The notes: a model not told the origin generated them from the sequence alone. Shown: positions 21,952 to 49,622, counted from the first letter of the stretch. The stretch is DNA of 64,000 nucleotides from Candidatus Cloacimonadales bacterium (GCA_963677495.2 CAXXOU010000003.1:384001-448000), one strand, 5' to 3'. Numbers and translations: made by a program.

Positions 21952-21961
21952 TAGACTACAT

Positions 21962-23761: not shown

Positions 23762-23813
23762 GTATTAAAAGTGTTGTCGCTAACTTTGTTTATAAAAGTC
23801 AACAGCGGCTGAA

Positions 23814-23929
23814 GATGGCGGCGATCTACTCTCCCACATCGTTGCCAATGCAGTACCATCGACGCTGGTGAGCTTAACTGCTGTGTTCGGAATGGGTACA
23901 GGTGTATCATCACCGCAATTGCCACCATC
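23814..23929 (-). rRNA. rrf: 5S rRNA (ends approximate)
   Basis: Reverse complement contains CCCATTCCGAACACAGCAGTTAAG and GTGGGAGAGTAGATCGCCGCC. Confidence 0.95.
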
Positions 23930-23983
23930 TTCAGCCGCTGCTATGCGACTATATTGTCTGGGATAGAGTATATAAAGTTTCAG

Positions 23984-26859
<2,876 letters not shown>

Positions 26860-27006
26860 GAATATCCTCTATACACTCTATCCCACGTATTTCACTATTT
26901 AAGATCTATTTCTTAATAAAATTTATAAAAGTGAGTGAACAACTTACCAAACATTGAATTATTGCAATGGAATCTGATTAAAAGATTCATCGCATTATAC
27001 ACCTTT

Positions 27007-28553
<1,547 letters not shown>

Positions 28554-30741: not shown

Positions 30742-32088
30742 ATGAATAAAGATAGAAAGCACGTTTTAAGCGATGAGCATGTAGGTAGATTACTTATAAA
30801 ATTATCAGTTCCGGCAATGACAGGTATGATAGTTATGGCACTCTTCAATGTTGTAGATGCTATTTTTATCGGGCATGGAGTTGGGACGATGGGATTAGCA
30901 GGTTTAACAATTGCCTTCCCAATTCAGATGGCGATTATGGCATTCTCATTTGTTTTTGGCATGGGTGGTGCTTCTCTTATCTCCAGAGCTCTCGGAGAAC
31001 AAAACGTTAAGAAAGCTGAACTCACTCTCTACACAATTCATATAAGTGTTCTCTTCTTTACTACGCTTATTGTTATAACCGGTCAGCTCTTCCTTGAACC
31101 CATTCTAAGTGTTTTCGGTGCAACTCCTGCCATAATGCCTTATGCAAAGGAGTATATGCGAGTTATCTTCATGGGTACACTCTTCTTCACTTTCATGCAG
31201 GTTAACAATAATGTTATAAGAGCTGAAGGTAATGCTAAATGGGCTATGATAAGTATGATTCTTGCTGCCGGATTAAACATTATCCTCGATCCTATCTTCA
31301 TCTTTGTTTTCAAGATGGGCATTAGAGGGGCTGCTATAGCAACAGTTATCTCTCAGGTAGTAACTGTAATATATCTATTCTACTACTATATTAGCGGACG
31401 CAGTATCTTCAAACTAAAGCTTAGCCATTATAAATGGAACTTCACTGTTTTCAAAGAGGTTGTTATAATCGGCATGCCGTCATTTGTACGACAGATTGGG
31501 GCATCAGTTCTTATCGCTTTGATTAATCAGACATTGAAGAGTTATAGTGGTGACCTGGCTATTGCTACATATGGAGTGATTAACCGTGCTATGTCATTTA
31601 TGATGATGCCGATGTTTGGTGTAGGTCAGGGACTTCAGCCAATTGTTGGTTATAACTATGGCAGAAAACGTTTCGATCTTGTGCGTAAGGTTATGAAAGA
31701 TGCAACTATCGGTGCAACAATTATCGCAGTCCTTGGAATGCTGACAGTATTGATTGTTCCATCATTGATAATAAAGATGTTCACATCAGATACCGAAGTA
31801 CTAGCTTTGGGAACACATGCTTTCAGGATAATTGTAACAGTATTTCTGTTCGTGGGATTTCAGGTTACATCAAGTTCATTTTTCCAGGCTCTAGGAAAAG
31901 CCAAACCATCGTTTATACTATCAATTTCCCGACAGATTGTGTTTATGATACCACTCGTTATCATACTTCCTAAAGTCATAGGTTTAGATGGTGTATGGTG
32001 GGCATTCCCTATTGCGGACTTAGGTTCATTTATTCTAGCCTTGGTTATGACCTTGAACTGTATAAAGAAATTGCGACACCTCGTATAA
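30742..32088 (+). CDS. MATE family efflux transporter (MepA-like)
   Basis: FNVVDAIFIG, NIILDPIFI..MGIRGAAIAT, QPIVGYNYG; about 12 TM segments. Confidence 0.93.
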   Translation: MNKDRKHVLSDEHVGRLLIKLSVPAMTGMIVMALFNVVDAIFIGHGVGTMGLAGLTIAFPIQMAIMAFSFVFGMGGASLISRALGEQNVKKAELTLYTIHISVLFFTTLIVITGQLFLEPILSVFGATPAIMPYAKEYMRVIFMGTLFFTFMQVNNNVIRAEGNAKWAMISMILAAGLNIILDPIFIFVFKMGIRGAAIATVISQVVTVIYLFYYYISGRSIFKLKLSHYKWNFTVFKEVVIIGMPSFVRQIGASVLIALINQTLKSYSGDLAIATYGVINRAMSFMMMPMFGVGQGLQPIVGYNYGRKRFDLVRKVMKDATIGATIIAVLGMLTVLIVPSLIIKMFTSDTEVLALGTHAFRIIVTVFLFVGFQVTSSSFFQALGKAKPSFILSISRQIVFMIPLVIILPKVIGLDGVWWAFPIADLGSFILALVMTLNCIKKLRHLV

Positions 32089-32117: not shown

Positions 32118-32843
32118 TCACCTGAATGCCAGATAAATTTGTAGCATAAAGGTTAGCGTTGTTATTATACCTGTATAAAGTCTCCAATTAAATCTTCTAG
32201 GAGGAGGTACAACAAGGGTATCCCCGGGATAAAGGAGTAGATGTTCTCTATACTCCAAATCTTTGGAGTCTGCAAACCAGATATGCTTTAAGTTTACATT
32301 AAACACTTCCCCATCTTTCCTGATAATCCTTATAGTTTTAACTTCTCTGATATTAACAATTCCTTTGGCTAACGCTAAAGCATCTGTGATTCGAATAGGT
32401 TCATATATTTGATATTCACCTGCAGCATTAACATAACCAATAATATTGAGATTATGACCGTACATCTTATCGATGTAAATAGTTACGACAGGGATAGTTA
32501 CATATGGCCTGAGCTGTTCTTTAATTATAGCACTTAACTGAGCAGATGTCAGACCGGCAACTTTAATACTACCAAGAAGAGGATATTCAATTCTACCATC
32601 GGGTAGGACTAAGATTTTAGTCTTAGTAAACTCAATATGATCCATAACCAGGATAGATATCCTATCACCTTTTTGTAGAACATATTCATCTTCATCAACC
32701 AGAACCAATGAATCAGGTAATGGGGCAACTTTTACCTCACCTTGAAAAACATCATCTTTAGTAATTCTGGGAATATAAGTACCTTGAGCAAAGATTGTAA
32801 AAGTGAAAGTAGCAACTAAAAAAATCAGTAAATATCTCTTCAT
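32118..32843 (-). CDS. Wza/OPX-like polysaccharide export protein (Poly_export + SLBB)
   Basis: Start moved to MKRYLL (GAGGT RBS). YVLQKGDRISI, VLPDGRIEYPLLGSIKVAGLT, LYPGDTLVVP; hydrophobic C-terminal helix. Confidence 0.88.
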   Translation of the reverse strand: MKRYLLIFLVATFTFTIFAQGTYIPRITKDDVFQGEVKVAPLPDSLVLVDEDEYVLQKGDRISILVMDHIEFTKTKILVLPDGRIEYPLLGSIKVAGLTSAQLSAIIKEQLRPYVTIPVVTIYIDKMYGHNLNIIGYVNAAGEYQIYEPIRITDALALAKGIVNIREVKTIRIIRKDGEVFNVNLKHIWFADSKDLEYREHLLLYPGDTLVVPPPRRFNWRLYTGIITTLTFMLQIYLAFR

Positions 32844-32850
32844 AAGAACC

Positions 32851-33936
32851 TCAATTATTGATTTCATCGAATATCTTTTTTTTGTATCTAAGGGGATTTG
32901 CTTCCCAGTATTTTTCACCATTATATTCAGTAATAATACCCGGGTAAGTAAACATCTTCAAGTCCTTTGATGTCATTTTTCTTACTTTATTAGATAACTC
33001 AATTGCTTGTGGTATAGCAATATTTGTTTCTGCATCATCTAATATAGCTTTACCGACCTGTCCACTCTTGAAGTAATCAAGCTGTGAAAACTTACTCCAA
33101 AGCTCGTTCATAAAACTCTTTTGCCTGGTAATCCTATTAATAGTGCCTGTTTTGTAGTCAAGTCTCCTCATCTCCTTAGCAATAAATGTAATATAGAACC
33201 AGGAAGTATAGCCGTCAATTATATGGACACCACTATTAACTCGATATTCCTTAGCGAACTCTTTTGGAATATCGACTTTTACACCTCCAATATGGTCAAT
33301 AAATTTAATCCATGCCGGTCTATCTTGAGCGAAGAAATAATCTATATCTGTCTCAGTAACCTCTGAAACAGATTGCACAAGGGCAGATGTACCACCAATA
33401 AGATACATTTCATATAAAGTTTTAACATTACCTAGAAAGTCATGAACAGATGTAAACCAAGGAAGATGAGTTGCTGAGATAATGCCATATGTGGGATACA
33501 CATCTATCAAAATGAAAGTCCTTGGTAGACCAGCATAAATGATAGTAAACCTATCTTGATCTTCAATCATTGGCGTCTTTGGCTTAGGAATTGGAGGTAG
33601 CTTAATTCTTTTAACCGGAGGAGATTTCTTCACTTTACATGGTATACAATATGACTCCCAAGCTTCTATAATCATATCAGGATTGAACCTATCAATGTCA
33701 GCATTAGGCTTCATGCCATCAGCTTTTCTTATTAACTCGTAAAGGGTCATACCTTCATACATTGGATAAACGCCTGGGTCATAAACACAGCCACCAACAC
33801 CAGCGTAGGTTATTTCCCTTTTACTACAAGATTTAGGAAATAGAAGAAATACAATAACAGCAGAAATAATCAGAAGAAAATAGATTACTGAATAGATGTA
33901 TTTACGAGTATTACTATTTTTACGTCGCTTTTTCAC
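32851..33936 (-). CDS. Membrane-anchored SLBB + LCP (LytR-CpsA-Psr)-like protein
   Basis: GTG start; TM; SLBB (GCVYDPGVY...LIRKADG); Pro-rich linker; IDHIGGVKV, RITRQ, ETNI LCP motifs. Confidence 0.78.
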   Translation of the reverse strand: MKKRRKNSNTRKYIYSVIYFLLIISAVIVFLLFPKSCSKREITYAGVGGCVYDPGVYPMYEGMTLYELIRKADGMKPNADIDRFNPDMIIEAWESYCIPCKVKKSPPVKRIKLPPIPKPKTPMIEDQDRFTIIYAGLPRTFILIDVYPTYGIISATHLPWFTSVHDFLGNVKTLYEMYLIGGTSALVQSVSEVTETDIDYFFAQDRPAWIKFIDHIGGVKVDIPKEFAKEYRVNSGVHIIDGYTSWFYITFIAKEMRRLDYKTGTINRITRQKSFMNELWSKFSQLDYFKSGQVGKAILDDAETNIAIPQAIELSNKVRKMTSKDLKMFTYPGIITEYNGEKYWEANPLRYKKKIFDEINN

Positions 33937-36482
33937 TATTCATCCATATCAAGTTCATCATCCAAGCCGATAAATACTTTCAACTTGTGAAGATACAGCT
34001 CAAAACCTTTCTTCTTTCTTACTCGACCGAAGTGTGTTTCAGAGTGCACTTCATTTTCAAGGATTTCATCTTCTAGTAAGAAAGTTCTCTCAACTTTAGA
34101 ACGATTCTTAACAATAGAGAGAATCTTTAAAGGATTGTATTTATTGAAGAAACTTGATTTATCGGATTGAGGACCATACTGTTTTGAATAGTAGTAGTAA
34201 CTATAATGATAATAATCTTGGTAAGTTTTATCAAATACTTCTTTAAGCATCGAGTTAGCAATAACTCCACCAATTTTTGTATCCAGTATTTGGATTTTTT
34301 TAAGTAGTTTTTTGCAGCTGATAGAAGTAGTAAACCCCATTTTAGAAGTAAGAAGAACACAATCCATTTCGTTAACAAGAACAGATGTTTCAGGGAAATA
34401 CATGGCAGCCGGTGTATCAATAATTATGATATCACAAACGGTTTTCAAGTCATTGATAATATCCTTAAATCTTTCACTATGGTAAAGATGAGCGACACTA
34501 GGAGGGCATTTACCTGTAGGTAATATCATTAAATTATCAATTCGTGTTTTCTGAATAACTTCATGAATTGCCATCTGTTCAGTCAACACTTCGGAAAAGC
34601 CGAAAGCTTTAGTTTGTTTGTAATATCTTGAGATTTGGGGATTATAGAAATCAGCATCAACTAAAAGAGTTTTAGTATTATTATTCGCCAAAGCTATCGC
34701 TAAATAGTTAGTAATGGTTGACTTTCCTTCTCCCTTGAGAGAACTAACCACAGCTATGGCATTGTTTCTTTTATTAAGAATTAGATACCTGAAGTTCAAC
34801 GCTATTTCATTAAAAACACTTCTTACAAGTTCCTGATTATGTACTTCATCATCTGTTTTCTTAGCAGTTTGTGCATCAAGTTTTAAAGGGTTAAATTTGA
34901 ATTTTGGTATTGTCCCAATTACCGGAATATTAGGATATACTTGCAGTAGCTTTTTGATGCTACTTATCTTATTGTCAAACCTGGTTAATAAGAAAACTAA
35001 TGCAACGCTAAGAGCTAGCCCAAAAGCGAATCCATTCAGAAGAGCCATAAAAAGTTTTCCCCCTAAATGATTTTTAGGGACTGTAGCTTCTTCTAGTTGA
35101 ACGATTCTGTTAAGATCTACGTTAGCACTCAATCTAACATTGTTTAGCTGATTTTGTAGGTTTGTAATAGTTAGAATTAGTGCGTTTTGCTCCCGTTGCT
35201 TTGATTTGAGAATCGAGTTTTCTTCAGGACTAAGCTCCATATCGTCAATAATCTTCCTCAGAGCATTACGCTTTTGCTTTAAAGATATTGCCTTAGTTTG
35301 GGATTCTACAAGTTTCTTTAGAATTTGCTGCTTAAGCGGATTTTGCCCGACACTTCTCATTTGAATACTTTCTTCAACACCTTCAGAAATGAGAGTTCTG
35401 ACATTGGTTATATTCTTTTTAAGACCAATGACTTTAGGGTGGTTCTCTCCGTAAATAGTTAAGGCTCTAGCCAGCTCAACTTCAAGATTCATTAGCTTAA
35501 TCTTCAAAGGTTCACTATATGTTGTCTCAGTTACGTATGTCGAATCTTCTTCATTTAGCTTATTACTTAACACTTTTATATTTGATTCTTCTGCTTCCAG
35601 ATCAACCTCAATAGAAGTAAGTGTACCTTTGAAACTATTCAATCTTTTCAGGTTATCATCAAGATTTTCCCCATAGTTTCTGAAATCATTTCTTGAATAC
35701 AGAGATTTGGTAAGCACATTCAGTGAGTCAAGATCATCCGTCTTTGCCCTAATCTGCGTTTCCAGGTAATCAATTGTTTTTGTAAGGTTTTTCCTTCTAA
35801 CATAGCTATCATAGTCTTTCAAAGCTGTGAAATAGCTATTTGCAACATCGGTAGCTAGTACCGGATCTAGTGAAGTTGAGGAGATAACTAAAATAGATTC
35901 ATTTGTAGATGAACTTGAGCATCTGATCATACCTCGTGCTGCTCTTTGAGAAACTCTTCCATTAAGGTTCTCCGCAACTAACTTTGCAACATCTGAAGAG
36001 TAAACAATTTCTACCCATGTTGCTATGTCCATTGAGTTTTTTACTATAGGCTTATTGTTGATTACCTTGAGCTCAATTGAGTCTTCCTGAATAAGAATTC
36101 TTGTACTAGTTTTGTATACAGGAATCTGTCTCGAGTGATAGACATATGCACCCACTAATCCAAGAATCGTAAAAGCCAGAATTATCCACTTGTTTCGATA
36201 AGCAACTTCCAGATATTCAATCAATGAGGGCTCACTATTTTCATTTGGATTTGAAATAAATCCTGACAATTTTGAGTCATCTTCTTCTCTAATTGGCTCT
36301 TGATCGTCTATCTTAGCATTAGATGTTTGTGAAACCTGAGTTTCGATTTGTGCTTCAGAGGAAAAAACACTTTGGGAATCTTCAGTAGTTTCATTGGAAT
36401 CATTTAAATCGAGATTATCTCTTTCTAAATCATTTTCCTTTTGCTTTCTTATTTCAGTTATTGAAAGCCGTCTTTTTGACAT
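33936..36482 (-). CDS. Wzc-like polysaccharide co-polymerase / BY tyrosine kinase
   Basis: Two TMs around a coiled-coil periplasmic domain (YGENHPKV); Walker A GEGKST, A' LLVDAD, B IIIDTP; Tyr cluster YQDYYHYSYYYY. Confidence 0.92.
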   Translation of the reverse strand: MSKRRLSITEIRKQKENDLERDNLDLNDSNETTEDSQSVFSSEAQIETQVSQTSNAKIDDQEPIREEDDSKLSGFISNPNENSEPSLIEYLEVAYRNKWIILAFTILGLVGAYVYHSRQIPVYKTSTRILIQEDSIELKVINNKPIVKNSMDIATWVEIVYSSDVAKLVAENLNGRVSQRAARGMIRCSSSSTNESILVISSTSLDPVLATDVANSYFTALKDYDSYVRRKNLTKTIDYLETQIRAKTDDLDSLNVLTKSLYSRNDFRNYGENLDDNLKRLNSFKGTLTSIEVDLEAEESNIKVLSNKLNEEDSTYVTETTYSEPLKIKLMNLEVELARALTIYGENHPKVIGLKKNITNVRTLISEGVEESIQMRSVGQNPLKQQILKKLVESQTKAISLKQKRNALRKIIDDMELSPEENSILKSKQREQNALILTITNLQNQLNNVRLSANVDLNRIVQLEEATVPKNHLGGKLFMALLNGFAFGLALSVALVFLLTRFDNKISSIKKLLQVYPNIPVIGTIPKFKFNPLKLDAQTAKKTDDEVHNQELVRSVFNEIALNFRYLILNKRNNAIAVVSSLKGEGKSTITNYLAIALANNNTKTLLVDADFYNPQISRYYKQTKAFGFSEVLTEQMAIHEVIQKTRIDNLMILPTGKCPPSVAHLYHSERFKDIINDLKTVCDIIIIDTPAAMYFPETSVLVNEMDCVLLTSKMGFTTSISCKKLLKKIQILDTKIGGVIANSMLKEVFDKTYQDYYHYSYYYYSKQYGPQSDKSSFFNKYNPLKILSIVKNRSKVERTFLLEDEILENEVHSETHFGRVRKKKGFELYLHKLKVFIGLDDELDMDE

Positions 36483-37321
36483 TACATTTCCCTACCATGA
36501 TAAGCTAAGTCAGTGAATACCATTTCCATCGTATCCTTATCAATTAGCTTTGCTTTCTCTGCAGAAGCAACATCCATTGCAATTTTACAAGCACGATTTA
36601 TTTCCCGCGGGATGCCTGAAGTCTTTCTATAGATAACTCTCAAAGCATCTGCTGTGAAAATTCTCTGCTTTGCACCAGATACCTTCAATCTATATTCAAC
36701 ATATGAGCTGGTATCATCTGAGCTCATATGGTTTAAGTGAAATCTCATCCCGATTCTTTGGTCAACCTGAGGAAGTTTTCTAATACTTTTCATGATAGCT
36801 GGTTGTCCAATGAGAATGAGTTTAATTGGGCAAAAATAGTTATAATTAATGTTAGTTAGGTCCTTTAAGAGATCCAAGTCTTTTGCTGAAATTTTCTGAG
36901 CCTCATCAAGAAATATATATATTAAACCTTTTGTGTACAGAAGTTCATCTTCAATGTACTTTTGCAACATTTTGAAAAGGTAATATCTTTTTTTTGGTAG
37001 TTTCATTGCATCTGTATCCAGAATCTGAGAAAGCACTTCTGTAAGTATCTCATTGTAAGTGAAAGATGTTGAGTCAATGTTAACAACTATATTGTTCATA
37101 TTACTTTTTTTAAGTTCAGAAATCAGTACCATCTTAGTTATCGTTTTACCGGTTCCGATCTCTCCGCTAAGTAATCCCAGATTCATGCTTTGAGAATTAA
37201 CCACATATTTAAGTCGCTCCAAAGCTTCATAATGGTCAGTACTTTTATAAAAGAATTTTGGGTTATTATTGTCCTCAAATGGTGGTTCATTAATATTCCA
37301 AAAGCTATAATAATCTATCAA
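36482..37321 (-). CDS. ExeA/GspA-family AAA ATPase
   Basis: N-terminal Y..FW.I.EPPF, GEIGTGKT, LDEAQ, LIGQP, SGIPREIN. Confidence 0.9.
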   Translation of the reverse strand: MIDYYSFWNINEPPFEDNNNPKFFYKSTDHYEALERLKYVVNSQSMNLGLLSGEIGTGKTITKMVLISELKKSNMNNIVVNIDSTSFTYNEILTEVLSQILDTDAMKLPKKRYYLFKMLQKYIEDELLYTKGLIYIFLDEAQKISAKDLDLLKDLTNINYNYFCPIKLILIGQPAIMKSIRKLPQVDQRIGMRFHLNHMSSDDTSSYVEYRLKVSGAKQRIFTADALRVIYRKTSGIPREINRACKIAMDVASAEKAKLIDKDTMEMVFTDLAYHGREM

Positions 37322-37329
37322 TATTACTC

Positions 37330-37989
37330 CTATTTTCTCTGGCTAATTTTTATTTCAACTCTTCTATTTTTATATCTATTCTCTTCACTATCGTTTGCAA
37401 CTAAAGGCTTGAACTCGCCATATCCCATTATCTGTAACTGATCAGCAGTGAAGTATCCGTTACGAATGAAGAATTTAACAATACTCAATGCTCTAGCAGT
37501 AGATAGCTCCCAATTTGAAGCATACTTATTATTGGCAATAGGTACGTTATCGGTATGACCTTCTATCCTAATTTGCCAGTTATCATCATCCTTAATAACA
37601 TTTTTAATTTCAATTGCTATTTTCATTAAAGTATCATGAGACAACCATCTAAGCTCAGCTTCTCCTGATTCAAAAAGTATCTCGCCCGGTACAGAAATCA
37701 CTTTTTCATTAATATCACCGTCAAGTTTGTTTTCAAGCGAGTCAACTATAGTCTGAGCAGCCTCAAGTTGTTTCTTCTGTTCCTCAGCTATTGTTTTCCA
37801 ACCAGTCTCAGTATCTCCAATCACGAAATAGAAAACAAAGAAGATGAGTAACAGAGTCATCATATCAGCATAAGGAACCAAAGCAGTATAGAATCCAGAG
37901 AAGTCATTATCAGGAGTGTTATTAGTACTCTCCTCAATCTCTTTAATGACTTGCTTCGATTTACCTTTAAAATCCTTAGTATTAAGCAT
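37330..37989 (-). CDS. motB: MotB/PomB-like stator subunit (TM with conserved Asp + OmpA-like PG-binding domain)
   Basis: VPYADMMTLLLIFF; ILFESGEA; IEGHTDN; SNWELSTARA; NRRVEI. Confidence 0.9.
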   Translation of the reverse strand: MLNTKDFKGKSKQVIKEIEESTNNTPDNDFSGFYTALVPYADMMTLLLIFFVFYFVIGDTETGWKTIAEEQKKQLEAAQTIVDSLENKLDGDINEKVISVPGEILFESGEAELRWLSHDTLMKIAIEIKNVIKDDDNWQIRIEGHTDNVPIANNKYASNWELSTARALSIVKFFIRNGYFTADQLQIMGYGEFKPLVANDSEENRYKNRRVEIKISQRK

Positions 37990-38719
37990 AGATCTTTGTT
38001 AATTCTGTTCTGATAATTTCAGAGTTGCGCTTTTCAATAACACCTGATATACCTTGAATAATAATTTCTCTAGAAATAAACTCATGCTCCGAGCGTGAAG
38101 ATATTTTACCTGCTATCGGTCTAAATATTACAACTGACAAAACTAGACCATATAGTGTAGTAACGAGTGCAAGACTCATTGCTTGCGGGATAACAGCTGG
38201 ATCAGCAATATTGCCAAGCATAGCAATCAATCCAATCACAGTACCAATCATGCCAAACATCGGAGATATATTACTCGCTACACTAAAAATCTTTGCTGCA
38301 CGTAATCCTGATCTCAGAATCGATCTACTCTCAGATTCGAGAAATTCCGAAATCCTTTCTTTAGGTATATTATCTGCTAACATAGTAATAGTTGTCAATA
38401 GAAAAGGAATGTTTTGAACTTCGTCGTATCCTTGTATCTCGATAAAGCTAAGAGTTCTGGAGTCTTTACTAACACCAACCATAATGTCTACCATATCATC
38501 ATGTGTTGTAGGTGGTGTGAAGTAAACTGAGCTCAAAGTCTTTAATGAATCCTGAAGATTAGAAATGGAGTAAGTTGCTAATAAAGCTGCAATTGTTCCT
38601 CCAAGAGTAACCAATAATGCAATAGGATCAAAGTATTCTATTAAAGTTCCTTTCGCACTAATAGCTATGAGAATTATTGCAACACTTAGTATGATACCGA
38701 TTAATGTACTTATTTTCAT
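37982..38719 (-). CDS. motA: MotA/PomA-like stator subunit
   Basis: VTLGGT, PMFGMIGTVIGL, ALVTTLYG, PIAGK; flagellar-type cytoplasmic domain with R88. Confidence 0.9.
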   Translation of the reverse strand: MKISTLIGIILSVAIILIAISAKGTLIEYFDPIALLVTLGGTIAALLATYSISNLQDSLKTLSSVYFTPPTTHDDMVDIMVGVSKDSRTLSFIEIQGYDEVQNIPFLLTTITMLADNIPKERISEFLESESRSILRSGLRAAKIFSVASNISPMFGMIGTVIGLIAMLGNIADPAVIPQAMSLALVTTLYGLVLSVVIFRPIAGKISSRSEHEFISREIIIQGISGVIEKRNSEIIRTELTKIYA

Positions 38720-38728
38720 GCTAATCCT

Positions 38729-40108
38729 TTAAAAACTTAGTATTTGACGAATCTTTCTTAATGAATAGTTAAGGATTGTATTTTTCTCTTTCTTGCTCAA
38801 CTCACCGTAAGATTCAATATCTTCTTTAATAATCATTATTGCTCGTTCTGATAGCTGTGAATAGAATTTACTCTTAATCTTAGAGTTCACGCTTGCAAGA
38901 AACTTCACGAGTTCTAGGTGGGTTAATTCAAGAGAAATCTGTTCAATCTGGACATTAGAAAGCACAAGGATATCTTCCAAAAGGAAAACTTTATCTGATA
39001 TTTCTTTAGCCTTGTATGAATCCACAAGCTGAATTGAATCGTAAAGATTCTGTGAAACTTCAAAATTGGAATTGTTAATTATTTTTGCGAGAAGTCCAAC
39101 ACCTTCGAGTTGAATGGCTTCCTTCTCCATTACTTCTAGATATTTGTTATAAAGACCTACAACCAATATTTTTAGGTCCAGTTTGAGCTTTGTTTGGTTT
39201 GAAAGCATAGCCTGAATAATCTGGTTGCGATTCTTAGTAACATGTTGGAAAAAGTTACCAGCTTTTGAAGGAGATATTTGGGAAAGAATAAATGCAATAT
39301 CTTCAGGAGTTTCCTCTTCAAGTATTTCTGCCATGTTTTCATCTGAAAGTTCTTCTAAAAAATCAAATCTTGTAGGCATAGCATCGTCTTCTTCATCTTT
39401 TAAAACTCTGACTTTTAAGGGTTCAAGAGGAACTTTGGGGTGTGAACTTTCGACCTGAGCTGTTTGAATAACATCAGGCATCTTAGCACTGCTTATAGCT
39501 TCTATGTTTGATACTTTTATCTTTCTCATCGATTTTGCAATGATTCTCATTCCGGATCTAATGTTATTTAGTAAAAGGAACATTAAGAAAATTACAATGA
39601 TAAAGAAATATAGTTGATAATTGTTTGCTTTAGGTTTACTCATTTCAGCGAGCATAGCCTCAGTTTTAATATCTAAAATATCGCCCTGAACTTCATTGAT
39701 TGTTATAATATCTCTAATCTCATTCTCAAGGAAAATTATCAATGTTTGAGATGTTTTAAGAGGTACTTTCACACTAATCTTCTTTCTTAATATCTCGGTA
39801 GGAATCACATCTTTAAGATCAGTTTCAACAATCTTGTTATCTGTCTTACCAACCGGTAAACCGGGTAAACTCATACTTGGATCATACTTAAAGTCAGATG
39901 ATTTAGCTTCGAATAGATTGTATTTCAAGTCTAAATCAACACCAACGATGCATTCACCAACAAATGGCTTAACAATATCTTCAATTCGGTTAGCAAGCTC
40001 ATTTTCAGCTTTTAACTCAGCAAGCGAACTGGTTGCTTCAGAGTTAAGATTTGCAAAAATGAACAAGATAGAAAAAATCAACAGAAGCAGTTTAATTTTT
40101 CTTATCAT
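38729..40108 (-). CDS. FliF ring-building-motif / FliG middle + C-terminal domain fusion protein
   Basis: N-terminal hydrophobic segment; RBM3-like ENELANRIEDIVKPFVG..VDLDL...LPG...RKKISV...QGDILDI; one TM; FliG-M FDFLEELSDE...EETPEDIAFILS; FliG-C EISDKVFLLEDI...QLSERAIMIIKEDIESYG. Confidence 0.8.
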   Translation of the reverse strand: MIRKIKLLLLIFSILFIFANLNSEATSSLAELKAENELANRIEDIVKPFVGECIVGVDLDLKYNLFEAKSSDFKYDPSMSLPGLPVGKTDNKIVETDLKDVIPTEILRKKISVKVPLKTSQTLIIFLENEIRDIITINEVQGDILDIKTEAMLAEMSKPKANNYQLYFFIIVIFLMFLLLNNIRSGMRIIAKSMRKIKVSNIEAISSAKMPDVIQTAQVESSHPKVPLEPLKVRVLKDEEDDAMPTRFDFLEELSDENMAEILEEETPEDIAFILSQISPSKAGNFFQHVTKNRNQIIQAMLSNQTKLKLDLKILVVGLYNKYLEVMEKEAIQLEGVGLLAKIINNSNFEVSQNLYDSIQLVDSYKAKEISDKVFLLEDILVLSNVQIEQISLELTHLELVKFLASVNSKIKSKFYSQLSERAIMIIKEDIESYGELSKKEKNTILNYSLRKIRQILSF

Positions 40109-40231
40109 CTATTCCTCCATATCTTGTATGTATTTATATCTACATGAGAAACTAGGCAAGTAAAAATTTATAATTTTTTTGTTTGACTTCACAAAAAACC
40201 CCAGCTATTAATGCAGTGATAAGGAGCGATC
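40109..40231. promoter_or_regulatory. Divergent promoter region between the motor operon and the adhesin operon
   Basis: 123-bp gap. Plus strand TTGACT-N17-TATTAA (40183-40211); minus strand TTGCCT...ATAAAT; RBSs GGGAG and AAGGAG. Confidence 0.5.
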
Positions 40232-43200
40232 ATGTATTATAAACATACCCAAAAGACTCGTATATTAACAATATTCGTGTTATTTACGTCCCTAACTAGC
40301 CTTGTTGCAGTGATTTCTTTTAACACTTCTATTTGGAACGGTAATCATTATATTTCCGGTGAAACCTCATTTGATTATTTTTCTTATGAAGTGCAGAACG
40401 GAGATGTTAATGGTGATGGGATAGCTGATTTAATCTGCTCTGCACCCTATTCTGACTATCAGGGACGCAACTCTTCTGGTACTGTATATGTTTTTTACGG
40501 TATTTCAATTCAGCAAAACTATCAATACATTGACCTATCATCTGAGAATGCTGATGTCACAATTGTAGGTGCAAATAGCAATGATCAGTTAGGAAAATCC
40601 CTTGGAATTGGGCAAGTGAATGCAGACCTGTATGATGATATTGTTATCGGCGCTCCTTATGCTAGTTCAGATACAGTTCAACAAGTAGGTAAAGTCTTTG
40701 TCATAAGTGGTAGTAATCAGCTACCCGCGTTTATTGACCTTGCAACATACCCCGCTCAGACCTTTGAAGCTAATAACCCAAACGACCTTTTTGGCTCTAC
40801 TCTCAATCTCGTCGACCTTAACGGTGATTTAAGGCAGGAGATTGTTATTGGTGCTCCAAATGCTGATCGAGATATTGCTAATAACTGTGGTAAAACTTAT
40901 ATATTATGGAGTACAGTTACTTATCCTCTTATTAACAATATCAATGACTTATCTGATATAACAATCTTTTCCGGTCTTAATACAAATGATTTATCAGCAA
41001 CCACTTTCAGTAGTGGAAACGTTAATAACGACTCATATCAAGATCTATTGATAGCTGCACCTGGTTATGATAATGATCTTTATAACAACAGTGGTGCTAT
41101 CTATATTATAACTGGTAGATCATCGATTCCATTTCAAGAGTTTCAATTAGATAATAGTACTTATGTAACATCAACTATCAAAGGTGCAGAACAAAATGCC
41201 CAATTAGGATTATCACTTGCTTGTGGTGACTTTAATGATGACAATAATGATGATATTATTGTATCGAACTTTTGTACTGATAATGAAACAGGCAGTCTGT
41301 ATATGTATTTTGGTAGTAACTCCATACCTAATGAGTTTCAGTTAACTGAACAGAATTCCAACTTTGTAGTTTTAGGAACTGAAACTGATAACAGTTTTGG
41401 TAGTAATTTATTGATAGAAGATCTTAACAATGACCAGATTAGTGATTTAATAATTTGCACACCTGATGCTACCACATCTAATGGAGCTTTGAGTGGTAAA
41501 GTCCAAGTTCTTTATGGGCTTAGCAGCCCACCTGTTGTTATAGATTTCAATGAAAGCACTCCTGATGAAGTATATCTTGGAGCATCAAGTGATGACCTTT
41601 TCGGCACTTCTGTTACTATTTTTGATTTCAATAGTGATAACAAATTAGACATCTCTATTGCTGCACCACAAGGTCATAGTAATCGAGGAGCAGTTACCAC
41701 AGTTTACGGTGGGTTACCTTTATTCAGCAATCCAAACCCGGTAGATGAGGCAAGTGATGTTGATATTTCACAATCTGTGTCTTTCACTTTGTATGATGAT
41801 GAAGGCATAGACCTTAACTCTTTAGGTGTTACAATTGCAGGCACTTTCTATGATTTAAACAACCCTAACCTCTCTTATGCCGGGGAAGCCACAAATTATC
41901 GAATCGCGGTTACTCCACAGCAATATTTCGGATATAATCAAATTATTGATGTAACTGTAACAGCTACTGATAATGATGGATATTTGATTCCAACAACAGC
42001 TTACAGATTCTATACAAGACAAGACACAGATCCTCCATATACAAACACATGGATACCATCACCGGGAGATACTGATGTATCAGTTGATACAAACATAAGC
42101 TTCCATATTCTTGACTTGGGTGAGGGTGTCGATTTGACGACTATTGAAGTGAATGTTAATGGTGAGATCTACTATAATGGTGATCCAGGATTTAGTTATA
42201 GTGGAAGTTCCAATGACTATTATATAGAGATTGATCCAGCAAACAATTTTGGGTTCGAGCAAGTTGTTAATGTTCTTATTAACGCTTCTGATCTGGCCGA
42301 GAATCCCAATGCCATGAGCACTTTTGCCTATTCCTTCCAATGTTCACAAGATCTTGCTTCCCCTAGCTTGCTCTATATAGACCCATCGAGCCAAGAAGTA
42401 GTTGCTAGAAATCATCCCATAACAATTGAAGTTGTAGACCCGGAATCAGGTTTAGATCTATCATCTCTAGTTCTGACATTGGATGGTTCTTCTATTATTG
42501 AACAATGTGAGATTACACAGATACAGCAAAATAATGGTTATCGCTTCTACTGGAACCCGGTTCCTGACAATCTATACTCTCTAGGAGAGCATTCAATAGA
42601 GTTATATATTCAGGATAATTCCGCTAATTCCAATGCGATTGATACACTCTCAGTGTTCACGGTAGAGGCTGATTTAGAAGCTCCATATACTATCAATCAC
42701 ATTCCTGAGAAATTCAGTTTAGATAATCCAGAGAATACACATTTTAGTGTAGATATTCTTGATATTCTTTCAGGAGTTGATTTGGAGTCAGTATCGATAA
42801 ACATTAATGATTCTGAAATAATAGATTTACCAGAAACTGATGTAGTAATTATTCCAAATGGTTATAGGATTACTTACACACCATCAAACTATTTCAGTGA
42901 TATTGTAACTATTCAGATTTCTGCAACTGATTTGAATACTCCTCCTAACTTAATGCCTTTAGAGGAGTATACTTTCACATGTATACAAGATTTAGTTGCT
43001 CCCTATATTGCTGCTGCAGCTCCATCAGATCAGGAGCTGAATGTTCCACAGGATACAGATGTTTCTCTATCGCTTAGAGATGATTTGACAGGTGTAAATC
43101 CTGAATCTATACAACTATTTATTGATAGCGAAGAAGTTACAGATAATATAATTATAACTGAGTTATCTGATCAGATCGATCTTTTGTATAATCCCGATGA

Positions 43201-44908
43201 TGACTTTGATTTCAATCAGTGGGTCACAGTTAGAGTTGTATGTGCAGACTTAGCTTCCACACCAAACCCATTAGATCAAACTTACTCCTTCAAAATCATC
43301 CCGGATATTGAACCGCCATATCTGGTAAACATGATACCTGAAGATCAAGAAAGTGGTGTCGCTACTGTTGCAGAGGTTTCATTTGAAGTTCACGACGATG
43401 GACTTGGTGTTAACATAAATTCTTTGACTGTATATGAAAACAATATGCTAGTAACTACTGTATATGAGCAGATTCCAGATACAAATAATTACTTAGTGAC
43501 GTGGGAGCATGAACCTTATGAATATGGTGAAGAAGTAAACATAGTTGTTTCCGTCTCGGATATCGCAACAATACCAAATACTTTGTCTAACTTTATTTAT
43601 AGTTTTACAATCGCTGATGATGATGTGATTCCTCCATACTTTGACGGATTCAACCCGTCACCTCAGAGCATCGACGCTCCTGTTGAAACTTCAATCTCAT
43701 TAAAGATACTTGATACTGAGACTGGTATAAACAAGAATTCAATATTGTTCCACGTTAATAACCAAATTGTGGTTGATTATGAGCTGGAAGATATAGTTGA
43801 GGGAGATGCAACAGGAGTAAGGCTGTACTATCAACCTGCAACTGATTTCAACTACAATCAAACAGTAAATGTTCAAGTGTATGCTATTGATAACTCATCC
43901 AATCATAATGAAGCCAGTATAAATTACTATTTCACTACTTTATCAGACACAGAACCACCATATCTTGTTACAGCTAATCCTGCTGATGGTGAAAATGGGT
44001 ATGCTTTCTCTTTGATTTACCTTTTGTTTAGAGACGACCTTTCAGGAATAGATCCCAACTCCATAGATTTAGAGATAAATCAGGAACCTGTTTATGACTT
44101 TGAAATTGAATCAAAGTTTGAGGGTTGTGAAGTTCGTTTCCTGACAGGTAGTTTTGAAGGAAATGAAACAGTAGAGGTTTCCTATACAGTTGCCGATAGT
44201 ATAGGAAATCTTCTTCAAGGCAATTATAGTTTCAGTATTATTGAAGACATCTATGAGCCTTATTTTATCTTAGAGAATCCCATTATTGGAGACATTCAAT
44301 CTGATGATGTTTTACAAGTTGCCGTTTTAGATAAAGGAACCGGAATTGACTCTACATCGGTAAGGTTCTGGGTTAATAATCGTGAGATTCATACTTTCCA
44401 GTTAAATAGAGATGTATATTCTACTAATCCGGACTCATTAGGTTATTTATTACTTTATCCTCTAGATAATATGTACTACCCGGGACAAGAGCTCAACATA
44501 GATATTGAAGCAGAAGATAACTCATCTCCGGTAAAACTATTTGCTCAAGATAGCTTTATTACACATGTTTTTAAACAAGCTAAGGATGACAAAGTAACAG
44601 TTGTACCGGATATTATAACTCCAAACAATGATGGTTTCAATGACAATGTTAGAATTATTATACCTCTAGACTCTGGAGATGATGAAGCTGAATGCATAAT
44701 CTTCAGTTTAAAAGGCAAAAAACTTATAGAACTAAATTGCAATCCTTATAACTATTTTGATCAAGATGCGGGAACTTCCTTGCAGTACAAATCTGCTTTA
44801 TGGAAGGGAGTAAATGATAATGGAAAAGGTGTACCACCTGGAGTTTATATCTGCCAAGTAAAGGTTAATGGTAAAACACACCTTAACACAATAACGGTTG
44901 CGAAGTAG
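40232..44908 (+). CDS. Large surface adhesin: 7 FG-GAP repeats, 9 Ig-like (Big_5-type) repeats, type-B-like/FlgD CTD
   Basis: Signal peptide; seven DxNxDxxxD repeats; nine D..PPY...P...D...G(V/I)(D/N)..S(I/L) repeats; CTD PDIITPNNDGFND...WKGVND.G..VPPGVYI. Confidence 0.88.
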   Translation: MYYKHTQKTRILTIFVLFTSLTSLVAVISFNTSIWNGNHYISGETSFDYFSYEVQNGDVNGDGIADLICSAPYSDYQGRNSSGTVYVFYGISIQQNYQYIDLSSENADVTIVGANSNDQLGKSLGIGQVNADLYDDIVIGAPYASSDTVQQVGKVFVISGSNQLPAFIDLATYPAQTFEANNPNDLFGSTLNLVDLNGDLRQEIVIGAPNADRDIANNCGKTYILWSTVTYPLINNINDLSDITIFSGLNTNDLSATTFSSGNVNNDSYQDLLIAAPGYDNDLYNNSGAIYIITGRSSIPFQEFQLDNSTYVTSTIKGAEQNAQLGLSLACGDFNDDNNDDIIVSNFCTDNETGSLYMYFGSNSIPNEFQLTEQNSNFVVLGTETDNSFGSNLLIEDLNNDQISDLIICTPDATTSNGALSGKVQVLYGLSSPPVVIDFNESTPDEVYLGASSDDLFGTSVTIFDFNSDNKLDISIAAPQGHSNRGAVTTVYGGLPLFSNPNPVDEASDVDISQSVSFTLYDDEGIDLNSLGVTIAGTFYDLNNPNLSYAGEATNYRIAVTPQQYFGYNQIIDVTVTATDNDGYLIPTTAYRFYTRQDTDPPYTNTWIPSPGDTDVSVDTNISFHILDLGEGVDLTTIEVNVNGEIYYNGDPGFSYSGSSNDYYIEIDPANNFGFEQVVNVLINASDLAENPNAMSTFAYSFQCSQDLASPSLLYIDPSSQEVVARNHPITIEVVDPESGLDLSSLVLTLDGSSIIEQCEITQIQQNNGYRFYWNPVPDNLYSLGEHSIELYIQDNSANSNAIDTLSVFTVEADLEAPYTINHIPEKFSLDNPENTHFSVDILDILSGVDLESVSININDSEIIDLPETDVVIIPNGYRITYTPSNYFSDIVTIQISATDLNTPPNLMPLEEYTFTCIQDLVAPYIAAAAPSDQELNVPQDTDVSLSLRDDLTGVNPESIQLFIDSEEVTDNIIITELSDQIDLLYNPDDDFDFNQWVTVRVVCADLASTPNPLDQTYSFKIIPDIEPPYLVNMIPEDQESGVATVAEVSFEVHDDGLGVNINSLTVYENNMLVTTVYEQIPDTNNYLVTWEHEPYEYGEEVNIVVSVSDIATIPNTLSNFIYSFTIADDDVIPPYFDGFNPSPQSIDAPVETSISLKILDTETGINKNSILFHVNNQIVVDYELEDIVEGDATGVRLYYQPATDFNYNQTVNVQVYAIDNSSNHNEASINYYFTTLSDTEPPYLVTANPADGENGYAFSLIYLLFRDDLSGIDPNSIDLEINQEPVYDFEIESKFEGCEVRFLTGSFEGNETVEVSYTVADSIGNLLQGNYSFSIIEDIYEPYFILENPIIGDIQSDDVLQVAVLDKGTGIDSTSVRFWVNNREIHTFQLNRDVYSTNPDSLGYLLLYPLDNMYYPGQELNIDIEAEDNSSPVKLFAQDSFITHVFKQAKDDKVTVVPDIITPNNDGFNDNVRIIIPLDSGDDEAECIIFSLKGKKLIELNCNPYNYFDQDAGTSLQYKSALWKGVNDNGKGVPPGVYICQVKVNGKTHLNTITVAK

Positions 44909-44916
44909 GAGGAATA

Positions 44917-46380
44917 ATGAAAAAGATACTTATAACAACATTCGCTTTCTTCCTTATCGCTAATCTGTTCTCTTTCAATTTTGAAAAAGCCGGAATACGT
45001 AACTTCTCAATGGGTAACACTGGTATCGCTCAATCCTTTGATGCTTCAGCTGCTGTATATAATCCTGCTCTATTAGCACACATTAAAGAGTTTTCATTGT
45101 TAACTGACAATAGAATATACCTGTATGAACTTGAAAATGACCAGTTATCTTATAATTCTGTAATTGTATCTGTTCCTCTTGGCACAAAATTCAGCTCTGC
45201 TTTTTCATCTGATGTTTTTCAGTCAGACCTTTATCAAGAACTGCATCTAGGTCTGCATGCCGGTACTTTCATAAGAGGTGATAGGTTCAAAGCAGGGATA
45301 GGATTAAACTACTTTAACGCTGGATTTGGTTCAAACATCTACACTGCCAATGATCCACTTTTTGTTGACAATGATGATAGCAGTACTGCTATAGATTTTG
45401 ATTTAGGATTCGCATATTTAGTAAACAACAGATTACAATTTGGTTTAGTTGGTCGGAACCTTCTACAATCAAAACTTGCAATTGATTCAGATGATACACT
45501 GGCAAGAGAAATTGGATTTGGTGCGACCTTCAGCATAATTCCACAGTGGTTAATCGCTACAGATTTAGTGTATACTTCTTACAATGAAGAAGACTTTGAC
45601 GAGTTAATATACTCATTTGGTACCGAATACAGACTTTCAAATAACCTAGCATTAAGAGGTGGATTGAACAATACTGATTTGAGTTTTGGTTTTGGATTCC
45701 TTGTCCTTGAAAAAGAGTATTTACAAAAGTATCGTGACCCTCTAAACAATAGAAAGATGGTGAATAGTAAGTCTATTGCACTATCTGTAGACTATGGTTT
45801 TAGTTATCCTGTGCTATCAGATATGGAAATACCATATGGAAACCACTTTGTCGGACTTGAACTCAAGTTTGGAAGCTCAACAACTGATGAAGACAAGCTT
45901 GCATCTCAAATACCTCCAAGAATTCAAACTGAGTTTATCAAAGAGCCAATGAAAGCTATTGAGACCCCACAACTAGCTACAGTTGACACATTGTATATCG
46001 AGATCGAAAAAATAATAAAGGATACTGTTTATGTTGTTGATACATTGAGAGTTTTCACTGGTATATCTACTGATGAATATCTTCGCAAATCTAAAGAACT
46101 TGATGCAGTAAAGCTTGAGCTCAAAGACTATCAGGATCTTAATAAAGCTCTTATACATATTACAAACGCCACTAAATACTATTATCAAAGTGATCTTGTG
46201 AAAGCAGTAGCAGAGTGCCGTGCAGCCATTAGACTTGCTCCAAATATGGCTCTAGCCTATATAAAACTAGGTTCTATATATTACCGAATGGACGAAAAGG
46301 ATAAAGCTTTCTCAAATTGGAGAAAAGCCAAAGCTATAGACCCGAATAATCCAGAACTTAAAGCTGTCTTTAGGGAGTAA
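44917..46380 (+). CDS. PorV/PorP-like outer-membrane beta-barrel with C-terminal coiled coil and TPR
   Basis: GIRNFSMGN...DASAAVYNPA hatch motif; GTEY..LALRGG..SFGFG; TPR AIRLAPNMALAY..LG...AKAIDPNN. Confidence 0.78.
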   Translation: MKKILITTFAFFLIANLFSFNFEKAGIRNFSMGNTGIAQSFDASAAVYNPALLAHIKEFSLLTDNRIYLYELENDQLSYNSVIVSVPLGTKFSSAFSSDVFQSDLYQELHLGLHAGTFIRGDRFKAGIGLNYFNAGFGSNIYTANDPLFVDNDDSSTAIDFDLGFAYLVNNRLQFGLVGRNLLQSKLAIDSDDTLAREIGFGATFSIIPQWLIATDLVYTSYNEEDFDELIYSFGTEYRLSNNLALRGGLNNTDLSFGFGFLVLEKEYLQKYRDPLNNRKMVNSKSIALSVDYGFSYPVLSDMEIPYGNHFVGLELKFGSSTTDEDKLASQIPPRIQTEFIKEPMKAIETPQLATVDTLYIEIEKIIKDTVYVVDTLRVFTGISTDEYLRKSKELDAVKLELKDYQDLNKALIHITNATKYYYQSDLVKAVAECRAAIRLAPNMALAYIKLGSIYYRMDEKDKAFSNWRKAKAIDPNNPELKAVFRE

Positions 46381-48002: not shown

Positions 48003-49112
48003 ATGAAAAACACATTTGGCAACAGAATACTGAAGCTACTGTCAATAATCATAGTGCTGATACTTGTATCATCCACACTTCTTTACCTATTTGAACACAA
48101 CCATCCGGACACACTTATCCACACTTTTGCTGATGCAATTTGGTGGGGAATCGTAACTGTTACAACAATTGGTTATGGTGATATCGTGCCTATCACATCC
48201 GGTGGAAGAGTAATTGGAACAATTCTAATTATCTTTGGTTTCTGTAGTTTAACAATCTTTACAGCTATTTTGGCTTCAGTGTTTGTAGAAGACAAATTGA
48301 AAGGAGCGAAGGGTTTGAAAAAAGTAAAACTAAACGGACATTTCGTGATATGTGGAATTAATAGTTCCACTGAATATATGTTGAAAGCTTTTCAGGAGAA
48401 GAAGAGTTTCAACAAGAGTATTGTGCTTGTTGGAAACCATTCTGTTGAGATATTTGAGAGTATACAGAGCAAATTCACTAAACTGAATCTACAGTTTGTC
48501 AGAGGAGATCAGACACAAGTAGAGATATTGAATCGAGCGAGTATAAGCTCAGCAGAGCGTGTGTTCATTATGAGCGATGAGCAGAACTCACGCGAGATGG
48601 CAGATGATTATACAATAGTTGTTGTTAACACAGTGAAGTATGTAAATCCTGATGTTAAGCTTACTGTTCAGCTGTTAAATGCTTCCAAGAAACATCTTTT
48701 AAGACGTTCAGGAGTGGATGAGATACTTGTTTATGATGAGTTGAGCGGATATATATTAGCAAATAACCCTGAGAGTGATTGTGCTGTATCTATAATCGAA
48801 AAACTTTTAAAAGAGTATGACCACAGTATGGAACTTATAGATGTACCTGATAAACTTGTCGGACAAACTTTCGGTGATCTGCACACACATTTTTGGGAGG
48901 AGATGAATCGGATTGCAATTGGTTTAATTGATTATCAACAGGACTTAAAACTGAATGATATATTCTCGGATGATAGTTCGGCAATTGATGAATATATAAA
49001 AGCAACTCTAGCGAAAGCGAAATCTGTGAATGCAGATAAAAATGAGTTAATAACGATACATCCTGAGAAGGATTTCCGAATCAAATCCAACCACAAAGTA
49101 TTGGTGCTATAA
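48003..49112 (+). CDS. Two-TM potassium channel with RCK (TrkA-N-like) domain
   Basis: Selectivity filter WWGIVTVTTIGYGD; GHFVICG Rossmann start. Confidence 0.92.
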   Translation: MKNTFGNRILKLLSIIIVLILVSSTLLYLFEHNHPDTLIHTFADAIWWGIVTVTTIGYGDIVPITSGGRVIGTILIIFGFCSLTIFTAILASVFVEDKLKGAKGLKKVKLNGHFVICGINSSTEYMLKAFQEKKSFNKSIVLVGNHSVEIFESIQSKFTKLNLQFVRGDQTQVEILNRASISSAERVFIMSDEQNSREMADDYTIVVVNTVKYVNPDVKLTVQLLNASKKHLLRRSGVDEILVYDELSGYILANNPESDCAVSIIEKLLKEYDHSMELIDVPDKLVGQTFGDLHTHFWEEMNRIAIGLIDYQQDLKLNDIFSDDSSAIDEYIKATLAKAKSVNADKNELITIHPEKDFRIKSNHKVLVL

Positions 49113-49121
49113 GGAGTCCTT

Positions 49122-49622
49122 ATGAAACCTGATTTTTCGAAAACAAGAATATTTAAAAGCTTAGATAAAGATCAATTAGAGGTAGTGGAAGCTTATCTGG
49201 AACCTAAACAATATGTTTCTGGAGACTTAATCATTGAAGAAAATACAGAAGGTTCTCGATTATACATCCTAACATCCGGGAAAGTGTTTATTACAAAGAA
49301 TCTTGTAATGGATATTCTTGATAACCATAATGCAGAAGCAAAGCGATTAGCTACATTAACCGGTGATTTCATGCCCAGTTTTGGTGAAAACGGTCTTATA
49401 ACAAATGGTTTAAGAACTGCTAATGTTATTGCAGGAGAAGATTGCACAGTCTTTGAGCTATCCGGTGAAAACTTTGAAGAGATAGTTTCAAACAATGTTA
49501 ACATTGGATATAAGATAGTACGTAATATAGCTGATATTGTCTGTGGAAGACTTGAGCAAACAGATAAGAATGTAGTGAAATTGGCAACTGCTTTGTACCT
49601 TTCAGTTGGCGACAGGAAATAA
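49122..49622 (+). CDS. Stand-alone cyclic nucleotide-binding domain protein
   Basis: LYILTSGKV, FGE...RTANV phosphate-binding cassette; no HTH. Confidence 0.88.
   Translation: MKPDFSKTRIFKSLDKDQLEVVEAYLEPKQYVSGDLIIEENTEGSRLYILTSGKVFITKNLVMDILDNHNAEAKRLATLTGDFMPSFGENGLITNGLRTANVIAGEDCTVFELSGENFEEIVSNNVNIGYKIVRNIADIVCGRLEQTDKNVVKLATALYLSVGDRK

Follow-up and report, generated by a model that had tools for sequence, protein, structure and literature searches.

The described systems that most resemble the locus analyzed here are the core of the flagellar motor and the SprB-SprF system of gliding and type 9 secretion (T9SS). The locus lies in a stretch of 64,000 nucleotides from a Candidatus Cloacimonadales bacterium (GCA_963677495.2 CAXXOU010000003.1:384001-448000), hereafter termed the window, and centers on a gene in which a FliF ring domain is fused to FliG, followed by motA and motB and facing a divergent pair of genes for a surface adhesin and a tailed outer-membrane barrel. 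For the flagellar core, the accessible parts of the respective reports state that engineered fusions of Vibrio FliF and FliG assemble into 34/35-mer rings (PMC11481574), that FliF holds the rod by peptide loops extending from its collar (PMC13626733), that the threonines of the PomA Na+ site are T158/T185/T186 (PMC10374538), and that the stator A subunit contacts the rotor through an RxxG-phi-phi-xLE motif, the charges of which are not critical in Vibrio (10.1101/2021.01.07.425829). For gliding, the available sections of PMC12635249 describe type B substrates bound to dedicated carriers in the Bacteroidota, and a periplasmic tail of SprF that joins SprB to the moving track. Channels of the MotA/TolQ/ExbB family are also present outside flagella, in the ‘generic ion transporters’ ExbBD, TolQR, AglRQS, and ZorAB (PMC12505986, as far as its accessible text goes). 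Among 11,365 genomes surveyed in PMC12199754, 11% of the non-motile species were reported to have rotor proteins but no filament, and the article raises the possibility that these rotor parts serve some other function.

We propose that the locus encodes a switchless, ion-driven rotor coupled to an adhesin that is held by its own carrier. This is the best-supported reading, and we put its chances at about even. The core would be an envelope machine made of five genes (fusion, motA, motB, adhesin, and barrel), to which an export module may be added. The features of the core and their positions in the window are as follows:

38729..40108, minus strand: FliF-RBM3/FliG fusion (RBM, ring-building motif), 459 aa, from the open reading frame (ORF), domains, AlphaFold2 model and profile comparison
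39650..40027, minus strand: RBM3 of FliF, its collar insertion shortened, RBM1/RBM2 lacking, from fold and HHalign
39854..39871, minus strand: SLPGLP motif, fusion residues 80-85, in the collar insertion, from conservation; a candidate grip for a partner
38732..39373, minus strand: middle and C-terminal domains of FliG, which bear R422, E429, and D430 as torque-helix charges and have lost EHPQ, from structure and alignment
37982..38719, minus strand: MotA of the flagellar (PomA/MotP-like) type, 245 aa (MotA_ExbB), threonine triad kept, RxxGxxxLE degenerate
37330..37989, minus strand: MotB, 219 aa, with a transmembrane segment bearing the conserved Asp, a short linker and an OmpA-type peptidoglycan-binding domain (OmpA and MotB_plug)
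40109..40231, no strand: intergenic gap of 123 bp between the divergent motor and adhesin-barrel units
40232..44908, plus strand: large surface adhesin, 1558 aa, with FG-GAP, Big_5 immunoglobulin repeats and a type-B-like C-terminal sorting domain, from domains and tail profile
44917..46380, plus strand: outer-membrane barrel of PorV/SprF/FadL fold with a periplasmic tail, from model and fold matches

Conservation was followed in 232 Cloacimonadota genomes and in 61 sampled genomes of a second phylum, that of a Ca. Electryonea record.

The fusion protein consists of a hydrophobic segment (residues 1-23), a ring domain (28-153), a transmembrane helix (161-187), a disordered linker (198-242), and a FliG part (246-459). 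The hydrophobic segment is likely a signal peptide, and the aligned N-termini suggest that it is cleaved. FliG_C was matched above its Pfam cut-off and FliG_M below it; no Pfam family matched the N-terminal half of the window protein, and YscJ_FliF_C matched weakly in 3/26 members of the fusion family only, the ring domain being unnamed by Pfam. Its FliF part is supported by fold and profile. In an AlphaFold2 model (44-row alignment, mean predicted local distance difference test score 82.9, predicted template modeling score 0.42), residues 28-153 aligned by VIA-align with FliF rings at Z 12.4 (6scn, root mean square deviation 4.4, 99 aligned), 12.1 (8z5v, 2.9, 91 aligned), and 10.7, and residues 246-459 have the fold of the FliG middle and C-terminal domains (Z 13.6). 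A profile of the ring domain compared with 24 FliF segments from the fetched loci gave a probability of 96.6% in HHalign (E 5.7e-10). As the RBM3 fold, the profile comparison and the FliG folds concur, the fusion of FliF RBM and FliG claimed in the initial annotation is real, and it has neither RBM1 and RBM2 nor the FliG N-terminal domain. An RBM fold with an insertion is shared with SpoIIIAG (Z 8.8) and with the type III secretion ring protein PrgK (Z 8.3), but the scores against FliF are higher; to our knowledge, SpoIIIAG and the type III secretion ring proteins carry no FliG domain or stator.

The torque-helix sites were placed by aligning the fusion to T. maritima FliG. Among 50 rows, two of them cut, the 48 that cover the helix all have R422 (48/48) and acidic residues at 429 and 430 (48/48 each). 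We take R422, E429, and D430 to be the equivalents of R281, D288, and D289 in E. coli numbering. The EHPQ motif occurs in 0/50 rows, and no paralog of the fusion was found among the ORFs of the genome. Compared with the flagellar core, this is then a natural single chain that lacks RBM1, RBM2, the FliG N-terminal domain and EHPQ.

The stator is of the flagellar type. PomA is the best solved relative of MotA (E 1.5e-30), and models of flagellar PomA/MotP are matched at E of about 1e-42 vs. about 1e-3 for those of ExbB/TolQ; three relatives of MotA elsewhere in the genome are weak (E 1e-5 or worse). T160/T187/T188 of the window MotA match the threonines of the PomA Na+ site and are kept in 28, 26, and 29 of 29 module copies, and the ion used is probably Na+. 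The Asp of MotB is kept in 37/40 Cloacimonadota copies and in 8/8 copies of the second phylum. The cassette hence has in common with the flagellar motor core the RBM3 fold, FliG domains with torque charges, the PomA-type threonine triad, and a MotB with its Asp and OmpA domain, and differs from it in the degenerate RxxGxxxLE of MotA and in that genes for an adhesin and for an outer-membrane carrier accompany it. With ExbBD, TolQR, AglRQS, and ZorAB it shares a channel of the same family outside flagella; unlike theirs, the cassette MotA always stands beside a FliG-bearing partner in the loci examined. As far as we know, those four systems work without FliG.

No flagellum was found for these genes to serve. 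In the genome (3.41 Mb, 4 contigs, 99.46% complete), FlhA, FliP, Flg_bb_rod, and Flagellin_N gave 0 matches, while the controls matched in 4/14; FliMN_C and CheW also gave 0 matches while controls matched. Because no flagellar marker was matched in so complete a genome, the motor core is flagellum-independent, as first supposed, and the option that it belongs to a flagellum encoded elsewhere in the genome was rejected. Within the window, rod, hook, filament, export-gate, and chemotaxis proteins are likewise absent from the 46 proteins domain-scanned, in agreement with the initial annotation; FlgD_ig matches in window proteins are C-terminal sorting domains. The cassette would work like a flagellar motor core and yet is not a member of the flagellum: an export gate, rod, filament, FliM/N, or CheW is not matched in this genome.

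Two core partners were omitted from the initial annotation, the adhesin and the tailed barrel, which lie at 40232-46380 on the plus strand, just beyond its coordinates. Relatives of the adhesin have variable passengers (FG-GAP, Big_5, Big_9, PKD, cadherin-like; 770-1590 aa) and a conserved C-terminal domain. A profile built from the tails of these relatives, the window protein excluded, gives the adhesin tail 75 bits vs. 44 for the next of 157 genome hits; this tail is distinct from the at least 150 type A sorting domains of the genome (TIGR04183 matched in all 150 candidates scored, out of 206), and matches of the relatives to TIGR04131 (T9SS type B) are all below cut-off. In the model of the second protein, a barrel (about residues 22-324) is followed by a D-T repeat stretch (330-386, low confidence), a long helix (386-423), and then tetratricopeptide repeats (TPR). 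Its top fold matches include the T9SS chains 8gl6_F and 6h3i_F, mixed with FadL. Most matches to TIGR04131, CHU_C, PorV_fam, and TIGR03519 do not reach the curated cut-offs. The D-T unit occurs 3-5 times in most barrel copies and 19 times in one (G222), and it might form a beta stalk by oligomerization or serve as a linker that carries glycans. The adhesin gene stands directly upstream of the barrel gene, an order that fits a type B substrate with its own PorP/SprF carrier, and the genome has SprA (TIGR04189, 438.8 bits, above cut-off), encoded on a contig other than that of the motor (G000:C1:499059-505220; L163:7060-13221).

The likeness to SprB-SprF, as the latter appears in the accessible text of PMC12635249, therefore lies in a variable type-B-like adhesin placed directly upstream of a PorV/PorP-family barrel with a periplasmic C-terminal tail, and in SprA. 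In contrast to that system, the cassette has MotAB and a FliG ring, and GldL, GldM, and GldN (TIGR03513, TIGR03517, TIGR03523) gave 0 matches in a search in which no control genome matched either and which did not extend to GldK and GldJ. The barrel tail also differs, being a long stalk-helix-TPR with one invariant Cys vs. the short twin-Cys tail of SprF. The ring domain lacks a conserved Cys, on which ground a disulfide link of the SprF type to the ring was rejected. A second PorP/SprF-like barrel gene, tail-less, occurs in the window at 56128-57084, between uvrD and dxr. Three genes with type A sorting domains, two of them with FG-GAP repeats, lie at 19140-23590; copies of the same length and C-terminus are present on C2 and elsewhere on C3, which suggests recent duplication.

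The fusion profile matched 75/232 Cloacimonadota genomes, which were split by score into 49 with at least 150 bits (fusion, whole or cut), 20 with canonical FliG only, and six small ones with a longer variant. FlhA is found in 24/232 genomes and in 3 of the 49 that bear the fusion (G118, G119, G121), the other 46 being without a match. In the surroundings of the best fusion matches (40 loci), motA follows the fusion in 40/40 and motB in 39, the remaining one being cut at a contig end; the adhesin is present in 31/40 and the tailed barrel in 30/40, mostly directly upstream and on the same strand, and any of exeA, wzc, LCP, or wza in 8/40. Reading frames of the 40 loci are open apart from contig cuts. 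Related-locus searches seeded with the window protein and with P0057 confirmed no locus. In the second phylum, a full-length fusion was found in 9/61 genomes, in each of which a canonical FliG is encoded at another site as well. Fusion, motA, motB, adhesin, and barrel form one same-strand run in eight of these nine loci, the ninth being cut, and exeA, wzc, LCP, or wza occur in 0/9. The fusion-motA-motB core of the initial annotation thus recurs, but its seven-gene run, ending in the four export genes, is not the conserved unit and was rejected as such. In quick trees with long branches, whose rows are a subset of the loci, the FliG domains of the Cloacimonadota fusions form one group (33 rows, support 96) and the module MotA another (29 rows, support 99), each apart from the flagellar copies of the phylum. 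P0123, which had been counted as a fusion, clustered with flagellar FliG in the quick tree.

The SLPGLP motif is kept in 35/47 Cloacimonadota fusion copies that cover the region and in 8/9 of the second phylum. The 12 Cloacimonadota copies without it are all of a barrel-less subtype, and nine of them, uncut, have a periplasmic TPR gene after motB. This subtype, with neither barrel nor SLPGLP, was seen in L061 and L064-L070, where the TPR gene that follows has a signal peptide and CpoB/BamD-like matches below cut-offs. One genome (G144) contains two barrel-less motor cassettes in tandem. The genomes with the longer variant are six single-contig genomes of 1.5-1.6 Mb, with no FlhA match in any; three of their loci (G203:C1:806675-811977, which is L141, and L142 and L143) comprise a fusion of about 670 aa, an unknown gene of 380-420 aa, a TPR gene, motA, and motB. 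In an Omnitrophota genome without an FlhA match, the completeness of which is not given, L072:6960-12318 holds a LysM gene, a 680-aa fusion with the C-terminal part of FliG duplicated, a small opposite-strand ORF, motA, and two motB genes.

By analogy with FliF and with the engineered FliF-FliG chains, the fusion would assemble into a membrane ring, with a hoop of RBM3 domains in the periplasm, S-ring-like, and a FliG ring in the cytoplasm. A peptidoglycan-anchored MotA5B2 stator would let ions pass, probably Na+, and turn the FliG ring; the residues retained on both partners point to rotation, and to rotation one way, because no FliM/N, CheW, or EHPQ site was found. The adhesin would leave through the SprA translocon of the genome and, like SprB on SprF, remain attached to the barrel dedicated to it, the genes and the type of tail being those expected from that analogy. 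The stalk-TPR tail of the barrel would then engage the ring, probably at the SLPGLP loop, which would occupy the site of the rod-binding loops of FliF. SLPGLP aligns into the collar insertion of FliF with low confidence, and its residue-level match to a rod-binding loop is putative; that it binds the barrel tail fits, since the motif is lost where the locus has no barrel. A complex prediction with three barrel tails (345-487) and the ring domain (26-160) scored 0.28 vs. a mark of 0.32, outside the calibration of the tool, and weighs on neither side. The motor would finally spin, drag, or tension the adhesin, giving surface movement or forceful attachment. That the cassette stands for a class of rotary machines spread over several uncultured phyla, in which a flagellar core directly turns an outer-membrane carrier with its T9SS-exported adhesin, has in our view somewhat less than an even chance. 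On this reading, such a machine would be a motor for surface motility or adhesion that combines gliding and flagellar parts and dispenses with filament, type III export gate, and GldLM.

Several observations weigh against this rotor-adhesin machine. The coupling of barrel tail to ring is its weakest step, and the distribution of SLPGLP may reflect few evolutionary events. The motor goes with the tailed barrel in 38 of the 40 genomes (out of 232) in which this barrel was matched, the other two being 72 and 86% complete, but this count rests on a profile made from 25 motor-linked barrels, with 7 candidates scored per genome and related genomes that are not independent. Moreover, 11/49 motor-positive genomes have no tailed-barrel match, the barrel-less subtype has its periplasmic TPR gene in place of a barrel, and none of the six small genomes with the longer variant has a SprA match. 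Concerning the stator, an acidic residue at the PomA E96 site is present in 0/29 module MotA copies vs. 35/35 flagellar-type copies, 25 of which are from one family, and G91 is kept in 12/29 module copies; the first site of the motif is R/K/H in 27/29, and some acidic residue lies within positions 94-101 in 23/29. The MotB Asp is replaced by Ser or Asn in L038, L043, and L059, from one flagellated family (G119, G118, and G121, respectively, the three fusion-bearing genomes that also have FlhA); these may borrow the flagellar stator or may be losing the function. The loci showed no track proteins of the GldJ/K/N type, and no literature report of surface motility was found for these organisms.

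The window cassette carries, behind motB, four more genes:

36482..37321, minus strand: ExeA-like AAA ATPase (AAA_22; TIGR03015 at 145 bits, below the cut-off of 324)
33936..36482, minus strand: Wzc-type co-polymerase/tyrosine autokinase (Wzz and TIGR01007; Walker motifs, Tyr cluster)
32851..33936, minus strand: protein with a transmembrane segment and SLBB and LCP domains
32118..32921, minus strand: Wza/OPX-like (outer-membrane polysaccharide export) protein (Poly_export and SLBB)

When the longest ORFs are called, seven minus-strand frames fill exactly 32118-40108 in the order first annotated, and the gaps between them (+9, -8, +8, -1, -1, and -71 bp) agree with the spacing then given, of at most 9 bp or overlap. 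Domain searches bore out the identities proposed for MotA, MotB, the ExeA-like ATPase, Wzc, SLBB-LCP, and Wza. No minus-strand terminator-like site was found between 32118 and 40108, which together with the tight spacing is consistent with co-transcription of the seven genes. Promoter-like sites in the divergent region are not in excess (67 vs. 62.4 in shuffles).

ExeA, Wzc, LCP, and Wza are an accessory module of one motor subtype. Orthologs of ExeA (at least 42% identity) occur in 13/232 genomes, all 13 motor-positive, and with the query used none was found in 36/49 motor-positive genomes; the idea that the seven genes constitute the machine is not supported by this count, nor by the 0/9 loci of the second phylum. 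In the family of the window, the export genes follow motB in 9/9 examined loci, the window included. The gene order differs but the linkage to the motor is kept in G191 and, by inference across contig ends, in G209 and G139; in G140 the export genes are on a contig separate from the motor. The linkage between motor and export genes put forward initially is therefore kept in three families and three gene orders, though limited to one subtype; its persistence through rearrangement suggests a functional tie, and the module is nonetheless optional. The four genes belong to the families of Wzy-dependent and PEP-CTERM exopolysaccharide export modules. They differ from these in that no polymerase, flippase, or glycosyltransferase gene lies within the seven-gene run, in scoring below the cut-offs of XrtA systems, and in being joined to a motor-adhesin cassette; outside the run lie a MATE gene in convergent orientation (30742-32088) and, at 49731, a gene of the GT4 family. 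Further wzc and wza homologs are present elsewhere in the genome. Most likely, the module adds or anchors a surface glycan at the site and is not the load of the motor. A 921-aa gene without a Pfam match follows wza in 7/8 other loci of the family (L154:4127-6892) and is not in the window; its look-alikes are TolB/WD40-like clusters, a lead only. A motor-negative genome (G122) has a distant ExeA homolog together with KaiC-like, TPR, polysaccharide deacetylase, and GT2 genes (L162:8611-16418).

The alternative that survives best, although unlikely, is a surface-contact sensor, in which load on the adhesin would alter the engagement of stator and rotor, to be read by histidine kinases, or by the Wzc autokinase and a phosphatase, with an adhesive glycan as the response. 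In G191, G132, and G162, histidine-kinase or response-regulator genes are aligned with those of the motor, in G139, G140, and G209, exeA and wzc are separated by a metallophosphoesterase gene, and both the degenerate torque motif of MotA and the Asp-less MotB of three genomes would fit a low-torque role. However, the FliG torque charges and the ion-site residues are kept in most copies, Wzc is the sole kinase gene in the locus of the window, and no kinase gene was matched in the nine loci of the second phylum.

We consider it quite improbable that the motor is a dedicated secretion energizer, which would eject the barrel-adhesin complex from SprA and so play a GldLM/PorKN-like role for one cargo, without later movement. 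The available text of PMC12635249 presents carrier ejection as the energy-requiring step of type 9 export, and a genome with SprA, abundant sorting-domain proteins and no GldL, GldM, or GldN found (with the control limit given above) would suit such a drive. The motor locus and sprA are, however, on different contigs. As a general T9SS energizer the motor was rejected, because SprA is present in 218/232 genomes of the phylum, including 96/98 of a family with 0/98 fusion matches.

Highly unlikely, too, is a non-rotating scaffold or a slowly decaying flagellar relic, with the ring as a SpoIIIAG-like static conduit or spacer and the stator incidental to it. RBM3-like folds do form static rings as well, as the match to SpoIIIAG illustrates, and the decayed torque motif of MotA, together with a MotB that in one lineage has lost its Asp, could be read as erosion. 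Against a relic stand the open reading frames of the 40 loci, the occurrence of the cassette in two phyla, its coexistence with a separate flagellar FliG in 9/9 genomes of the second phylum and with FlhA in three of the first, and, within the limits of the trees, the grouping of its FliG and MotA apart from flagellar copies.

The polymer-export motor of the initial annotation, driving or gating export through Wzc-Wza, has very little left to commend it as the main output: known Wzc-Wza export is ATP-driven, and the tight linkage and the 13/13 motor-positive ExeA genomes that speak for it are set against the many motor-positive genomes without the module, a run with no glycosyltransferase or polymerase gene, and other wzc/wza homologs in the same genome.

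A full-text literature search, whose reach excluded subscription papers largely and supplements wholly, found no description of the cassette, and it is undescribed in the accessible portions of PMC12505986, PMC13277936, PMC8542988, PMC12199754, and PMC11481574; the homolog table of PMC12505986 could include these MotA proteins without comment. The data suggest a machine, not described so far, in which ion flow powers the moving or pulling of surface proteins and no tail is turned. With a conserved FliG ring and its own stator outside the flagellum, the cassette is a concrete candidate for the other function that rotor parts may have. If true, it would be a natural minimal rotor made of one chain and MotAB, with a bearing on the relations between flagellar and T9SS/gliding machines and on the means by which anaerobes that are abundant but uncultured adhere to surfaces or move over them. 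Should the motor instead serve as a sensor or as the drive for secretion of one cargo, this too would put the flagellar core to a new use.

Elsewhere in the window, a 16S-23S-5S rRNA operon lies on the minus strand at 23813-28553, and an RCK-type potassium channel gene followed by a gene for a cyclic-nucleotide-binding protein occupies 48003-49622.

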